From a virus (lineage: Duplodnaviria > Heunggongvirae > Uroviricota > Caudoviricetes): a stretch of 64,000 nucleotides of DNA. This document shows positions 2,000 through 9,408 of the stretch, in pieces. The translations under genes were made by a program, and so were the position numbers. How positions within the stretch are numbered: position 1 is the first letter of the stretch; each line of letters opens with the position of its first letter. The notes beneath the pieces were generated by a model. The model was not told where the DNA came from, made no database searches, and worked only from the letters and a program-made list of their open reading frames with translations. The DNA lies in the IMG/VR virus record IMGVR_UViG_2925908680_000001; one strand, written 5' to 3'.

Positions 2000-2446
2000 A
2001 TGGCTGAAAATTTAAAGGCAAGAGATGGTAACCGCCTGTATAAGGCGCAATTGCTTTCCTACTATTATTCACGCCGCGCTGAGTCGGCGATCGGCAAAGG
2101 TGCGCGTTTTGTTATCTCTAAGGCGTATTGGTGCAAATCTAGTCTGGTAACTGCTAATGGTGCAGGAGGCTGGAATATAGCGGACATTCCACTCGATTTT
2201 AAATTGAGTAACGCTCAACAGTTTGCTGTGTCCGATCTGATATTGTCCAGTGTGGATGGGATTATCACTATCAATGCAGCCTTCCCTCAAGAAAGAATGC
2301 CGGATAACACGCCTTACGACTTTAACACGCTTGTGCTTGTTGATGCTGAGGAACAGGCTTTTGCTGTGCTTTGCACCCAGCAAGACACCCTCTATAAAGG
2401 TAAACGTTACAGTATTCTCATGACAATCGAGCAAGTTGAGGGATGA
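2000..2446 (+). CDS. first gene of tail-fibre operon (P1 R-like position)
   Basis: 148-aa ORF; stop overlaps ATG of tail-fibre gene (ATGA); synteny with P1 R-S-U. Confidence 0.4.
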   Translation: MAENLKARDGNRLYKAQLLSYYYSRRAESAIGKGARFVISKAYWCKSSLVTANGAGGWNIADIPLDFKLSNAQQFAVSDLILSSVDGIITINAAFPQERMPDNTPYDFNTLVLVDAEEQAFAVLCTQQDTLYKGKRYSILMTIEQVEG

Positions 2447-5400
2447 TTATGGGTGCTGATAAAACGAACAACATAATGACACTATCCTCTGGTGTCTCAC
2501 AGCCGTTGCTTGCTGATGTTCAATATTTCGAACTCTATAGTAGTTCGGCTCTTAACAGAAAACTTAAAAATATTGTTTTGCCGGGCTTTTACTGTGGATT
2601 TGAACCAGTTCCCGGCACAGGGTTGAGCGTCCGTATAACTTCTGAAAACTCAGAAGGTAAAGGGGCTGCTTCAGTAGATGTAAATAATGTTCAGATATCC
2701 GTTCAGCAAATAGAAGATGTGACTGTCTCGGTAAAGGCTGGGGCTACCAACATTATTGTGCTAGAAGCCAATTTTGAACATGGTGTAAAAACGACACAGG
2801 TAGAGAGCGCATCTTCTGTCAGTGCTGCAAGAATTTACGCGCGTACGGACAATACTATTGGGCAGAATCAAATTGAATTATGTCGAGTTATCGTGCCTAA
2901 CGGCGCAACGGCTGTGACGAAAGAAATGATTGTGCTTAAATACCGGGTTAACCGTGCTGTTGGTGTCGAATTCTCTAATGAAATAAGCAGTACAGAAGAA
3001 AGAAAAGCGGCTACACCTCTGGCTGTCAAAACTCTCCATGATTTGGTTGATACAAAAGCTCCGCTCGATAGTCCACATCTGTCAGGTACGCCGACTTCGC
3101 CGACACCTGAACCCGGTACAAACAACACACAGATCGCAAATGCGGCCTTTGTCTATGCTGCTATAAATGCGCTTATCAATGGTGCTCCGGGAACGATGGA
3201 CACGCTGAAAGAAATAGCGGCTGCGATCAATAACGACCCGAATTTCAGCACAACTATCAACAATGCCCTGGCTCTTAAAGCTCCTTTGGCAAGCCCGGCG
3301 TTCACAGGTACGCCGACAGCACCTACGGCCTCACAAGGCACAAATAGCACGCAGATTGCAAATACAGCCTTTGTTAAGGCAGCTATAACGGCACTTATCA
3401 ACGGTGCACCTGGCACATTGGATACGCTGAAAGAAATAGCGGCTGCGATCAATAATGACCCGAATTTCAGCACAACTATCAACAATGCCCTGGCTCTTAA
3501 AGCTCCTTTGGCAAGCCCGGCGTTCACAGGTACGCCGACAGCACCTACGGCCTCACAAGGCACAAATAGCACGCAGATTGCAAATACAGCCTTTGTTAAG
3601 GCAGCTATAACGGCACTTATCAACGGTGCACCTGGCACATTGGATACGCTGAAAGAAATAGCGGCTGCGATCAATAATGACCCGAATTTCAGCACAACTA
3701 TCAACAATGCCCTGGCTCTTAAAGCTCCTTTGGCAAGCCCGGCGTTCACAGGTACGCCGACAGCACCTACGGCCTCACAAGGCACAAATAGCACGCAGAT
3801 TGCAAATACAGCCTTTGTTAAGGCAGCTATAACGGCACTTATCAACGGTGCACCTGGCACATTGGATACGCTGAAAGAAATAGCGGCTGCGATCAATAAT
3901 GACCCGAATTTCAGCACAACTATCAACAATGCCTTGGCTCTCAAAGCGCCTTTGGCAAGCCCTGCATTAACGGGTGTCCCTACTGCGCCGACCGCCGCAC
4001 AGGGCACAAATAATACGCAGATAGCTACGACCGCTTATGTAAGAGCTGCCATATCCGCATTGGTTGGTTCATCACCAGAAGCTCTTGATACCCTGAATGA
4101 GCTTGCCGCAGCACTTGGCAATGACCCGAACTTTGCGACAACAATGACAAATGCGCTGGCAGGCAAACAGCCTCTGGATGCAACTTTAACCGCGTTTGCT
4201 GCCCTTGCGACTGGTGCAAACAAACTGCCTTATTTCACCGGTAAGGATACGGTAGCGCAGACTGATTTAACGTCAGTCGGTCGCGATATTCTGGCTAAAA
4301 CAAGCACACTGGCCGTTATCCAATACCTTGGTTTAAGAGAACTCGGAACAAGCGGTGAAAAGATCCCCCTGTTGAGCACGGCTAACACATGGAGTGCACG
4401 CCAGACTTTCAACGGCGGGATCACCGGGGCGCTGACAGGGAATGCCGACACCGCGACGAAATTGAAAACAGCCATAAACATTAATGGCGTCAGGTTCGAT
4501 GGTTCTACGAACATTTCGATACCAACAATTACGTCTAGAGGACGCGTTACTGCGCTTACCGGTACAACGCAAGGTGCTGCTACTGGATTGCAGATGTATG
4601 AGGCATACAACAATGGCTACCCTTCCCCCTATGGCAATGTGCTTCACCTTAAAGGTGCCACCGCTGCTGGCGAAGGTGAGTTATTCATTGGCTGGAGTGG
4701 CACGAGCGGTGCCCATGCGCCCGTACATATCCGTTCGCGGCGGGATACTGATTCTGCCAACTGGTCTGAATGGGCGCAGGTCTATACGTCAAAAGATTCA
4801 GTTCCCGGCGTCAATGCCAAAGGGGATCAGGATACCTCCGGCAATGCTGCTACGGCGACCAGATTGCAGACGGCGCGCACTATTAACGGTGTCTCGTTTG
4901 ATGGTTCTAAAAACATTGAGCTAACGGCGGAAGATTTAAATCTTGAGCAAACCGTAGAATTAGCCGCTGGATCATTGCAGAAAAACCAGAACGGCGCAGA
5001 TATTCCAAACAAAGATAAATTTACGCAAACAATAGGTGCTTGCCGCTCTTTTCATGGTGCTATTAGCACAGGTGCAGGAAACTGGACGACGGCACAATTG
5101 ATTGAATGGCTGGATTCTCAAGGGGCATTCAATCACCCATACTGGATGTGCAAATGTTCATGGTCATACGGCAATAATAAAATTATTACCGATACTGGCT
5201 GTGGAACTATTCATCTTGCAGGTTGCGTTATTGAGGTTATGGGTAATAAAGGTGCCATGACCATCCGTGTAACCACCCCGAGCACTTCCAGCGGTGGCGG
5301 AACTACTAATGCACAATTTACTTATATAAACCATGGCGCAGATTACGCACCAGGCTGGCGGCGTGACTACAGTACCAAAAATCAGCAGCCTGCATTTGCT

Positions 5401-5889
5401 TTAGGGCAGACAGGAAGCACAGTTGGAAATGACAAAGCTGTTGGATGGAACTCGATTAGCGGGGTTTATAACGCTAATATTGGTGGAGCATCTACGTTGA
5501 TTCTCCATTTTTATATGGGAGCTGGTAGTTGTCCGGCTGTTCAGTTCCGCGTGAATTATAAGAACGGCGGTATTTATTATCGTTCTGCGCGTGACGGTTA
5601 TGGTTTTGAAGCCGACTGGTCGGAATTTTATACTACAACACGTAAACCATCTGCGGGAGATGTTGGGGCATATACCAAAGCAGAATGTAATTCACGATTT
5701 ATTACAGGTATTCGATTAGGTACAAAATCGTCTGTGCAAACATGGAATGGTCCTGGATGGAACGATAAATCTGGTTATGTTGTTACTGCCTCAATCAACT
5801 CAAATAAGGACGAACTTATTGATACAACTCAGGCAAGGCCGGTGCAGTATTGTATCAATGGTACATGGTATAACGCGGGAAGTATTTAA
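2443..5889 (+). CDS. tail fibre protein (constant part 2443-4328 + variable tip in current orientation of invertible segment)
   Basis: 1148 aa; Gly/Ala/Thr-rich 80-aa repeats typical of phage fibres; C-terminal part shared in inverted orientation with 6983..8844; followed by Tfa chaperone. Confidence 0.85.
3061..4020 (+). repeat. 240-bp tandem repeat array inside tail-fibre gene (3 perfect copies 3301-3540/3541-3780/3781-4020 plus diverged flanking copies)
   Basis: Identical 240-nt units read directly; encode repeated 80-aa block ...[74 protein letters not shown]. Confidence 0.9.
4316..4341. other. cix-like crossover site (left): TTATCCAATACC-TT-GGTTTAAGAGAA
   Basis: Matches gix/cix/hix family half-site pattern (AAACC-NN-GGTTT core) at outer edge of inverted repeat. 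Confidence 0.75.
4329..5008. repeat. left ~680-bp inverted repeat of invertible C-segment
   Basis: Reverse complement of 8165-8844 read base by base; diverges at inner end. Confidence 0.9.
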
Positions 5890-5891
5890 TT

Positions 5892-6425
5892 ATGCAGCAT
5901 TTAAAAAACATCAGATCAGGTAATCCAAAAACTGTTGAACAATATGAATTGACGCGACAATTTGGTGTTGTCTGGTTGTATTCTGAAGACGGTAAAAACT
6001 GGTATGAGGAACAAAAGAACTTCCAGGATGACACTATAAAAATTGCTTACACATCAGATGGAATTATTGTGGCTATAAATAAAGACGTATCTACAATAAA
6101 TCCAGAAGGTTTAAGTGTGGTTGAGGTTGCTGACATTACTGCAAATCGCCGTGCTGACATTTCTGGTAAATGGATGTTCAAAGATGGCGTAGTGATAAAG
6201 CGAACTTATACCGAGGAAGAACAGAGGCAACAAGCTGAAAATGAAAAGCAAAGCCTATTGCAACTTGTCAGGGATAAAACCCAACTATGGGACTCACAGC
6301 TACGGCTGGGCATCATTTCCGATGAGAATAAACAGAAATTAACCGCGTGGATGCTATATGCGCAGAAAGTAGAATCTACAGATACCTCCATCCTGCCAGT
6401 AACGTTTCCCGAACAACCAGAATGA
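5892..6425 (+). CDS. tail fibre assembly chaperone (Tfa/U-like)
   Basis: 177 aa; N-terminal [21 protein letters not shown]... and conserved GKWMFKDG motif of Mu/P1/P2 Tfa family. Confidence 0.85.
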
Positions 6426-6426
6426 G

Positions 6427-6456
6427 AAAAGGCCCGTTATCGGGCCTTATTTTTTA
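6427..6456. terminator. bidirectional rho-independent terminator between convergent Tfa genes
   Basis: aaggcccg-ttat-cgggcctt stem flanked by A-run and T-run. Confidence 0.7.
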
Positions 6457-6981
6457 CTCAGGTTTTTGTGGCCATTCTGGCTTTGCCGTATCCACGCGGC
6501 TTACAAGAACGCTGTAGCGTTCCCATGCTTCCAGTCGGCTACGCTCCTCATCTGTTGCCATGTTCAGCCTGACAGCGCGTTCCAGTGGCTGAATAATGCT
6601 TTCTGCTTCGGAAAGTAACGCGGCCTTTTGTGATTCGGCCTGTTGTTGCTGTTCGTCTGCCGTATAAATCCGTTTAACCACAGCTCCGTCCTTAAACATC
6701 CACTTACCGGAATCATCGGCCCGACGATTGGCCGTTATATCGGGAACCTCAACGACGCTAAAACCTTCAGGGTTAAGCGTGGATGCATCTTTGGTGATGG
6801 CGACAATAATATTATTTTCATCGTAAACAATCTTTATTGTGTCTGGCTGAAAGTTTTTCACTTCCTCATACCAGTTTTTTTCGTCCTCAGAGTAAAGCCA
6901 GATGACTCCGTGCTTCTTTGTTAACTCATACTGCTCCACTGTTTTAGCATTACCAGCTTTTATGTTCTTTAAGTGCATCAT
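6454..6981 (-). CDS. tail fibre assembly chaperone (Tfa/U'-like), paralog of 5892..6425
   Basis: 175 aa, about 60% identical to the + strand Tfa by eye. Confidence 0.85.
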
Positions 6982-6982
6982 A

Positions 6983-8844
6983 TTAAACGCTCGCTACATT
7001 ATACCAGGTGCCATTTATATACTTTTGAACGGGTCTGTAATAAACACCAGCAATATTATCGGCGGAGTTGGAACCTGTATCCTGAACATTTATACCAGAC
7101 AATACATGACCTGAAGGACACTGGAAATTCCATGTTTGCCAGTTGTTTACACCATAATATTGCTGTGAGCCAAGCCGAACATCCTTTACATATCGGGAAT
7201 CAATGTTACCCCAGTTGCTTGGTTGTATCTGACCGTTTACAGCAAATGTCACCGAGTTATCTGTATTTCGCTGACTATAGAAATGCCAGCCTGAATCATC
7301 ACCAAGCTCTGCAACAGTTGGTCTTGACGAATTTCCCCACAAGTTAAATGATGCATTACGGGCAGCTGTATTTGAGCTTGAAAGTGTGAATAACTTACTT
7401 TCCCCAGTCTGAATACCCTTTAATGATATTGCTGAACCATTTCTAAAGCGGAATACATGCACACCATTAGCATAAGCATCCAGCACCCCATCACCATTTT
7501 GTTTAAACCCGGTATCGTTATCTCCTAAAACTATTGAATTGCCACCCAGGGCATTAGCCGTTCCAATCCCCAGATTTCCGCTAAAAATGGCATTAATACC
7601 GAATATTGAGTGAGAACAATAAAACCCTCGCCCATTGTTAAAATCAAGAATAGCTTGTGCGTTCGTGCTTTCTGTCGCGGGATTAGTTGCTCCCCACTTA
7701 TATGTTGTTTGACCGACGGTATAATCCTGAGTTGGAACAATAACCGTTAGCCCTTCTTCAGCAGAAACCCGCACAGGAAAAGCCCTGCCTTCAACGTAAA
7801 AAACGCTGCATACATCATCTTCTTTAAGGCTTGTTACAATGGAATGGATTGCGCGCTCATTAGTCTGATACGTCGAAAAATAACCTGCCGCATATGAACC
7901 ACGATCAGTCCAGCCACCAGGCATTACCATTCCATTGAATTCGCAGTTATTCATTTCGTAATTACCACCGGCAGATGTGGTCGTTATAATCACTCTGGAA
8001 GCCAGCTCGCCAGTGCTGCCTGTGGAACGCCGGAAAATAACTGGATACCACTTTCCACCAACTGCATTAGACGGCGCATTAAATGCGTACTGCCGCATTC
8101 CTTTTTTCTTATCCACTTCGCCTTTGCTGTAAACATTAATGTTACTCAGGAAGCGATCTTTATCAGGAATATCCGCGCCGTTCTGGTTTTTTTGCAATGA
8201 TCCAGCGGCTAATTCTACGGTTTGCTCAAGATTTAAATCTTCCGCCGTTAGCTCAATGTTTTTAGAACCATCAAACGAGACACCGTTAATAGTGCGCGCC
8301 GTCTGCAATCTGGTCGCCGTAGCAGCATTGCCGGAGGTATCCTGATCCCCTTTGGCATTGACGCCGGGAATTGAATCTTTTGACGTATAGACCTGCGCCC
8401 ATTCAGACCAGTTGGCAGAATCAGTATCCCGCCGCGAACGGATATGTACGGGCGCATGGGCACCGCTCGTGCCACTCCAGCCAATGAATAACTCACCTTC
8501 GCCAGCAGCGGTGGCACCTTTAAGGTGAAGCACATTGCCATAGGGGGAAGGGTAGCCATTGTTGTATGCCTCATACATCTGCAATCCAGTAGCAGCACCT
8601 TGCGTTGTACCGGTAAGCGCAGTAACGCGTCCTCTAGACGTAATTGTTGGTATCGAAATGTTCGTAGAACCATCGAACCTGACGCCATTAATGTTTATGG
8701 CTGTTTTCAATTTCGTCGCGGTGTCGGCATTCCCTGTCAGCGCCCCGGTGATCCCGCCGTTGAAAGTCTGGCGTGCACTCCATGTGTTAGCCGTGCTCAA
8801 CAGGGGGATCTTTTCACCGCTTGTTCCGAGTTCTCTTAAACCAA
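6983..8844 (-). CDS. alternative tail-fibre C-terminal segment (Sv'-like), promoterless in this orientation
   Basis: N-terminal 220 aa identical to residues of the + strand fibre encoded by the inverted repeat; unique 390-aa tip; ends with same INGTWYN motif. Confidence 0.8.
8165..8844. repeat. right ~680-bp inverted repeat of invertible segment
   Basis: Reverse complement of 4329-5008. Confidence 0.9.
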
Positions 8845-8856
8845 GGTTTAGGATTG
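8831..8856. other. cix-like crossover site (right): TTCTCTTAAACC-AA-GGTTTAGGATTG
   Basis: Inner half-site identical to left site; overlaps stop of invertase gene. Confidence 0.75.
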
Positions 8857-9408
8857 AAATGATGATGCCGGAAACTTCTTATAAAGAGTGGAAACAGCCA
8901 CATCATAGATGATAGCAACCTGCTTACGGGGGATGCCCTTCTCCAGCAATCGCCGCATTTGCTGCCATGTTTCTTTCTGGTATTTAGGCCGACGCCCACC
9001 TATTCGACCTTCTGCGCGAGCTGCATCAAGTCCAGCGCGTGTACGTTCAACAATAAGTTCACGTTCCATTTCTGCCAGCGCCCCCATTACGTGAAAGAAA
9101 AAGCGCCCCATTGGTGTACTGGTGTCGATGGAGTCAGTGAGACTCCGGAAGTTAATGCCTCTGTCACGCAGCTCTTCCACCTGCACAACCAAGTGACGCA
9201 TGCTGCGCCCAAGGCGATCTAACTTCCATACGACCAGGGTGTCACCTCTGGAAAGAATACGCAGAACCTTTTTTAACCCTGGGCGTTCAGCCTTTTTGCC
9301 GCTCGCCTTATCCTCAAAAATTAGCTCACATCCTGCGCTTTCAAGGGCGTTTCGTTGTAAAGCGGTGTTTTGGTCATTAGTTGATACGCGAATGTATCCA
9401 ATAAGCAT
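8848..9408 (-). CDS. cin: serine DNA invertase (Cin/Gin/Hin/Pin family)
   Basis: 186 aa; MLIGYIRVSTNDQ... catalytic Ser motif, resolvase fold, C-terminal HTH; adjacent to invertible segment. Confidence 0.92.
   Translation of the reverse strand: MLIGYIRVSTNDQNTALQRNALESAGCELIFEDKASGKKAERPGLKKVLRILSRGDTLVVWKLDRLGRSMRHLVVQVEELRDRGINFRSLTDSIDTSTPMGRFFFHVMGALAEMERELIVERTRAGLDAARAEGRIGGRRPKYQKETWQQMRRLLEKGIPRKQVAIIYDVAVSTLYKKFPASSFQS

Follow-up and report, generated by a model that had tools for sequence, protein, structure and literature searches.

This work concerns a tandem repeat array in Sc, the constant N-terminal part of the tail-fibre gene S, in a virus of the Caudoviricetes (IMG/VR record IMGVR_UViG_2925908680_000001), of which one stretch of 64,000 nucleotides, referred to here as the window, was analysed. 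Based on its unit length, position and homology, we propose that the array can be identified as an expanded allele of the 222-bp 'b' repeated element, which has long been annotated in phage P1, and that it was very probably derived from a three-unit arrangement, A-M*-Z in the unit types given below, through unequal recombination or replication slippage. The element is polymorphic in copy number, with 2-5 units among the relatives documented in the present analysis.

An earlier note on this DNA had described three perfect tandem repeats of 240 bp, and a long perfect tandem repeat is indeed present in the region it named, as found by both Tandem Repeats Finder and an offset test. Tandem Repeats Finder reported one array of period 222 with 4.1 copies at 3118-4022, and in the offset test every base from 3235 to 3711 equals the base 222 positions downstream; since this makes 477 consecutive matches at one offset, the repeat is far beyond chance. 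The perfectly periodic tract of period 222 occupies 3235-3933 on the plus strand (699 bp, 3.15 units), and a perfect run occurs at offset 222 only, with none at 216, 219, 225 or 240. The true period is 222 bp and not 240 bp, the longest match run at offset 240 being 6 nt, and the units placed at 3301, 3541 and 3781 proved not to be identical at 240-bp spacing. In the protein register PL.SP..., five in-register units of 74 amino acids span 3061-4170 (1110 bp); of the bounds proposed earlier, 3061-4020, the first coincides with the true start of unit 1, and the second stops short of the true end at 4170. The five units are as follows.

3061-3282, plus strand: unit 1 (type A), 79% identical in nucleotides and 82% in amino acids to unit 2, and 99% identical to unit 1 of D6
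3283-3504, plus strand: unit 2 (type M), the reference copy
3505-3726, plus strand: unit 3 (type M), 100% identical in nucleotides to unit 2
3727-3948, plus strand: unit 4 (type M*), with the protein of units 2 and 3 and three synonymous differences, at unit positions 208, 216 and 222
3949-4170, plus strand: unit 5 (type Z), the conserved last unit, 65% identical in nucleotides and 69% in amino acids to unit 2

Units 2, 3 and 4 encode one and the same 74 amino acids, and unit 1 has the same letters as the middle units from unit position 175 onward (window 3235-3282). The statement that three nucleotide-identical tandem copies are flanked by diverged copies was right, units 1 and 5 being the diverged ones. 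The array sits ~150 bp 5′ of the Cin crossover site cixR, and, as 222 is 3 x 74, all the alleles seen, with 2-5 units, stay in frame. With a unit of 222 bp, a multiple of 3, it is not a simple-sequence contingency locus, in which a unit of 1-10 bp shifts the frame or the promoter spacing. An antisense open reading frame of 284 amino acids (3153-4007, minus strand) also spans the array and is most likely no more than a consequence of a periodic sequence free of stop codons.

The P1 records M81956 and NC_005856 provide the identity of the unit, as 222-bp elements named 'repeated element b1' and 'b2' are annotated there in Sc directly 5′ of cixR (b1 at 1783-2004 and b2 at 2005-2226 in M81956, 222 bp each), together with shorter elements, a0 and a1. 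Window units 2-4 share 87-89% of their bases with P1 b1 (unit 1), and window unit 5 shares 91% with P1 b2 (unit 2) and 95% with unit 2 of D6; the annotated P1 register and ours are offset by one codon (3 nt, blastn). The window and P1 therefore share a tandem in-frame unit of the same length, its position in Sc 5′ of cixR, the homology to b1 and b2, and a plasmid prophage with a Cin-invertible C segment, and the layout in the window is that of P1, wherein 161 bp separate the end of b2 from the crossover site annotated in cixR. However, P1 has two diverged b units with a mutual identity of 62%, whereas the window has five, three of them identical, and the region 5′ of the array is of D6 type and not of P1 type in the window, the P1 match starting only at ~3040. 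The Sc repeated elements are reportedly also the subject of work on the tail fibres of p15B and P1 by Sandmeier, Iida and Arber.

Three unit types could be traced across the relatives, namely the first unit A, the middle unit M and the conserved last unit Z, and they are combined in the following architectures.

A-Z: D6
M-like-Z: P1 and P7
A-M*-Z: pGMI14-002_2 (NZ_CP028198.1) and most D6-like plasmids
Four units: pRHB16-C11_5 (CP057742.1), pCREC455-3, QESO01000019.1 and ABDARA010000019.1
A-M-M-M*-Z: the window and CP031764.1

The three- and four-unit D6-like phage-plasmids of Escherichia coli and Salmonella carry the same gene with the same first and last units, a middle unit of 99-100% identity and a backbone of 95-99% identity, but have one or two fewer middle units than the window. 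The crossover junctions of the four-unit alleles differ from that of the window, and these alleles are therefore parallel events and not direct intermediates.

The closest guide to the origin of the two additional units is pGMI14-002_2, as the window minus 444 bp is the Sc of this plasmid (allele L003) with 15 mismatches in 2057 bp, none of them from window 3103 onward, and unit 4 is 100% identical to its single middle unit. Between units 1 and 2 of pGMI14-002_2, the sole identity at period 222 is a run of 33 nt, preceded by 32 nt with one mismatch. In the window the periodic run of 477 is 33 + 2 x 222, and the tract 3235-3933 is 33 nt + 3 x 222 bp. Four single-nucleotide polymorphisms (SNPs) mark the junction, C174 in unit 1 and T208, C216 and G222 in unit 4, and units 2 and 3 are without all four; therefore, the new unit is M*[1..x] + A[x..222], with x between 175 and 207. 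The earlier suggestion of a recent expansion is borne out, since the window equals its three-unit relative plus exactly two units and backbones ~99% identical over 20 kb (CP157128.1, CP088573.1 and CP058021.1) still carry three.

Based on these findings, we propose that the ancestor would have had three units, A-M*-Z, the commonest D6-like arrangement, and that two extra units would have been gained when units on sister or concatemeric phage-plasmid copies misaligned, by either unequal homologous recombination or slippage in replication. First, an event within the 33-nt tract already common to A and M* (unit positions 175-207) could have produced a hybrid unit with the body of M* and the tail of A; then, once perfect identity had reached 222 bp or more, the second gain would have been easy. 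Each gain or loss would change each chain of the presumably trimeric shaft by one 74-residue module in frame, at a place proximal to the Cin-invertible receptor-binding part, which would stay untouched; across the alleles, neither the N-terminal part next to the baseplate nor the distal invertible part is touched by the changes in unit number.

Some points weigh against this account or narrow it. The copy number of the array is known here from the assembled sequence alone, and in such sequence unequal crossover and replication slippage would look the same, as would two single-unit gains and one two-unit gain. An A-M-M*-Z intermediate with the exact SNP pattern of the window was not found among the relatives, and the junctions of the four-unit alleles are slightly different. 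On the protein side, the AlphaFold2 monomer models of the units were unusable, with a predicted local distance difference test (pLDDT) score of 37.8 from a single sequence and 47.3 with a 27-row alignment of two units, and the trimeric state, the rise per unit and the functional effect are what we infer.

The comparison of copy number among related phages, which the earlier note had called for, found 2, 3, 4 or 5 units. Searches of complete replicons and plasmids gave roughly 420 of P1/D6-like type. Of the 51 complete replicons from E. coli in which at least 80% of Sc is matched, with the units counted from match spans, 22 have two units, 23 have three, six have four and none has five. The best 60 plasmids in PLSDB gave 12, 38, 7 and 0 with two, three, four and five units, respectively, and three cut by the end of the record, and the 120 best-scoring of 7,998 clusters in a search of 5.8 billion proteins comprise 114 with three units, five with four and one with five. 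Five units is the maximum seen, and no protein with more than five close units appeared at the top of the protein search, though the bit score rises with unit number. Exact-pattern scans for at least two middle units were positive in one of three viral (IMG/VR) and none of three metagenome (JGI) D6-like contigs, which are too few to inform.

The junctions in these alleles are various. In allele L012 (A-M-M-Z) the periodic run measures 254 nt and the crossover lies 5′ of position 174, the third unit of L013 is a hybrid that begins (5′) as Z and finishes (3′) as M, a run of 344 nt together with a hybrid as the first unit is found in L005 and L006, and P0005 and P0006 have another, different hybrid; the two-unit allele L004, with a first unit that is a hybrid of A (its 5′ 22 nt) and M, is the expected reciprocal deletion product. 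As the junctions are different, the events are independent, and there are at least five duplication junctions and one deletion junction. Recombination thus alters the encoded shaft in whole-unit steps, as the earlier note had supposed, through 2-5 units and several hybrid junctions, although the step is 74 and not 80 amino acids.

The only five-unit protein in the protein census (P0004) is encoded by CP031764.1, a separately deposited plasmid of 93,255 bp, and its array is that of the window base for base from 3103 to 4800; the flanking 5 kb differ at 34 sites, and the C segment is inverted. The C segment of this plasmid (extract 7870-12399 against window 8854-4318) has seven gap openings relative to the window, which split the expressed fibre into open reading frames of 910 and 371 amino acids and shorten one chaperone; they are either sequencing errors in the assembly or real frameshifts. 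In another relative, NZ_CP121358.1, an IS3-family IS1203 element lies inside the Sc match, which spans 2826 bp instead of 1513, and the tail-fibre gene is probably disrupted. A 233-bp piece in MT713136.1, the 254-kb jumbo-phage record of Aeromonas phage AP1, lies at 252732-252964 (extract 3001-3233) in a 'hypothetical protein' within the last ~5 kb of the record and is 99.6% identical to unit 1 of the D6-like E. coli allele of the pRHB16-C11_5 type. The same end region (extract 259-382) holds a 124-bp match of 83% identity to window 32996-33116, and the two pieces suggest that the assembly is chimeric or contaminated or, failing that, that a horizontal transfer of very small size took place. 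The literature search for Sc copy-number variation or a structure of the P1 fibre found nothing specific.

Three other explanations of the array have to be weighed against an expanded 'b' allele. In the first, unit number would be a selected, fast-switching setter of fibre reach that complements the Cin tip switch and tunes the distance between baseplate and receptor, e.g., through O-antigen or capsule layers. The recurrent and independent gains and losses counted above, all of them in frame, and the position of the array directly proximal to the host-range switch are consistent with such an adaptive contingency locus. However, the expanded alleles are rare in the complete E. coli replicons (0 of 51 with five units and 6 of 51 with four), the array is without dedicated machinery or a short hypermutable unit, and the few expanded alleles showed no tie to one distal tip type, as their lengths and Pfam tips differ in an informal look; we consider this explanation unlikely. 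The rarity of the expanded alleles is better explained by transient variants that are neutral or slightly harmful than by a switch under selection. It is a similarly long shot that the Sc array forms a second variation device, driven by recombination and coupled in series to the Cin switch; were this so, lysogen and lysate populations would continually make fibres of 2-5 or more units, the thickness of the surface layer (O-antigen or capsule) would select the length, the reach of the fibre would combine with its tip type to determine the host range, and the recurrent gains and losses would be the footprint of the device.

Secondly, the array could be an artefact of assembly or polishing, in that the true molecule would have fewer or more units, or differing units would have been homogenised by mis-mapped reads. 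A perfect tract of 699 bp exceeds typical short reads and makes copy number hard to resolve, and the exact S protein of the window is not on record in a collection of 15 billion proteins. But the identical five-unit array recurs in CP031764.1 in the midst of flanking differences and with the C segment inverted, four-unit alleles are present in many complete and draft assemblies, unit 4 retains its three private SNPs, which speaks against blanket homogenisation, and assemblers in general usually collapse and rarely expand repeats, so that an artefact is very unlikely. Finally, the earlier note had also considered ongoing conversion, i.e., that the three identical units are old copies held identical by continuing gene conversion, and although exchange did happen before, as told by the mosaic sharing between neighbours (the 3′ 48 nt of unit 1 equal the middle units) and by tracts of 33-122 nt in which units 1 and 2 of relatives are identical, this concerted evolution is very improbable, since the older units 1 and 5 have not been homogenised here or in any relative, the perfect tract amounts to the ancestral 33 nt and a whole number of units with nothing left over, the extra units are simply absent from close relatives with ~99% identical backbones, and diverged arrays such as that of P0121, with 9.5 units at roughly 60-80% identity, have not been homogenised either.

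The expanded 'b' allele lies in a setting that can be recognised by homology, as the first 9.4 kb of the window are identified as the tail-fibre operon of a P1/D6-like plasmid prophage, with the following features.

2000-2446, plus strand: homologue of gene R (PHROG 2032; annotation in the D6 and P1 relatives)
2443-5889, plus strand: tail-fibre gene S in the current orientation of the C segment, 1148 amino acids from ATG 2443 (open reading frame list and translation)
2443-4326, plus strand: Sc, the constant N-terminal part of S, 5′ of the cixR crossover, holding the entire array
~4316-4341: cixR-like Cin recombination site, TTATCCAATACCTTGGTTTAAGAGAA, at the boundary of Sc and the C segment, read by sequence
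4318-8854: invertible C segment, enclosing Sv, U, U′ and Sv′
4318-5016 and 8156-8854: inverted-repeat arms of the C segment, 699 nt, 99% complementary
5892-6425, plus strand: chaperone U
6454-6981, minus strand: chaperone U′
6983-8800, minus strand: alternative fibre end Sv′
8848-9408, minus strand: cin-type serine DNA invertase (Pfam Resolvase and HTH_7)

Sc was assigned from the start of the inverted-repeat arm at 4318 and from homology to the annotated Sc of P1 and P7. The annotated cixR of P1, P7 and D6 lies in the place equivalent to the site at 4316-4341, and its cix-like partner is on the reverse strand at ~8831-8856, the two sites being the outer ends of the arms. With a serine invertase, inverted cix sites and two Sv/U sets, the C segment is an invertible tail-fibre segment of the Cin/Gin/Hin type, and two Caudo_TAP chaperones (Pfam) are encoded in it on opposite strands. 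The product of gene S matches Phage_fiber_2 and gp37_C in Pfam and tail-fibre families in PHROG. By megablast the gene matches gene S of D6, P1, P7 and RCS47, its N-terminal part being closest to D6 and the P1, P7 and RCS47 matches running from ~3040 onward. Elsewhere in the window, a 20-kb stretch is 98-99% identical to E. coli phage-plasmids of ~92 kb. The ATG at 2443 overlaps the end of R, and the site at 2443 differs from pGMI14-002_2 and CP031764.1; the true start of S is probably 2449, two codons downstream, where the relatives annotate it.

The array lies, as had been proposed, in the constant part of the tail fibre, 5′ of both cixR and the inverted-repeat arms, and its end at 4170 falls outside the C segment. 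A link between the array and Cin inversion was rejected, because the array is outside the inverted repeats, and the array is a homology-driven source of variation separate from the C segment. The arms of the C segment and the perfect tandem tract are both exactly 699 nt long without any sequence relationship, which we take as a coincidence.

With regard to the protein, when one unit was used as the query against 1.84 billion representative proteins, 26,691 clusters matched at E<=1e-3 (877 at E<=1e-30), many with several stretches, and the unit also matches many PHROG tail-fibre families. Its N-terminal half of 36 residues (PLxSPxLTGxPTAPTAxxGTNxTQIATTAFV) is also found alone in other fibres. 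From these matches, the 74-residue module can be taken as a generic building block of fibres that has been widely shuffled, which agrees with the classical picture of mosaic tail fibres that Sandmeier reportedly set out in 1994. PF03406 (Phage_fiber_2) scores 30.2 bits on the S protein against a cut-off of 22, and its sole stretch is amino acids 176-207, just 5′ of the array; over amino acids 207-576 no separate stretch is above the threshold, and the N-terminal 36 amino acids of each unit (PLxSPxFTGxPTAPTAxxGTNxTQIAxTAFV) look like the Phage_fiber_2 motif by eye. The Pfam matches to Acyl-CoA_ox_N, MtrD and Kre9_KNH over the repeats were dismissed, as they have zero significant stretches and scores inflated by the repeats. 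Sequence and profile searches of the PDB gave only short partial matches to the unit, in the gp4 collar fibre 9d93, in 9k09 and 9cuy, and in gp68 of 6v8i. The Bas63 paper, considered as a possible origin of 9d93, mentions neither '9D93' nor 'collar fiber'.

The long tail fibres of T4 extend ~0.055 nm per residue. At such a rise, each unit may lengthen a trimeric shaft by roughly 4 nm, and a five-unit fibre could, as a rough estimate, be ~8 nm longer than the common three-unit form. Unit number may have an effect on host range, and we infer that a change in shaft length is tolerated and is neutral or mildly adaptive.

The feature is real but ordinary, an expanded allele probably made via ordinary unequal homologous recombination, and it reveals no new mechanism. 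A perfect in-frame repeat of 699 bp in a host-range gene can nevertheless be collapsed or mis-sized, and the lengths of S genes in P1/D6-like phage-plasmids need to be read with care; the assembly-collapse hazard that the earlier note had raised is plausible for this tract. Many database copies of the fibre protein are 'partial', with 520-940 amino acids (P0008-P0020, P0039, P0069, etc.), and some come from short draft contigs; we suspect that assemblies commonly break in or around the tail-fibre and C-segment region, and that the inverted repeats are perhaps a larger hazard than the tandem array. This fibre family is widely used, in P1 transduction and in delivery vectors, and the alleles of 2, 3, 4 and 5 units found in nature, whose crossover junctions are now mapped, offer a handle for the engineering of fibre length variants.

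Arrays of the same module occur in other tail-fibre-like proteins, with 9.5 tandem units in P0121 (1039 amino acids) and four in P0138 and P0267. They resemble the window in the module itself (55-70% identical), in the 74-residue period and in the placement of the array between an N-terminal anchor and a C-terminal distal domain, but their units are mutually diverged, so that these arrays are old, and their N- and C-terminal domains are unrelated to those of the window. Outside phages, the shaft of the adenovirus fibre is a comparable case, being a trimeric attachment fibre in which the number of tandem modules, pseudo-repeats of ~15 residues that differ in number between serotypes, sets the length and leaves the knob unchanged; however, its fold and sequence are unrelated, its repeat is far smaller, with copies that are old and have drifted apart. 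The trimeric autotransporter adhesins, such as BadA of Bartonella and YadA of Yersinia, likewise have stalk and neck repeats in which long in-frame DNA repeats code for the modules of a trimeric fibre, and recombination between these repeats yields length variants among strains, as the tail-fibre array does, although they are bacterial surface proteins with no sequence relationship to the phage repeat.

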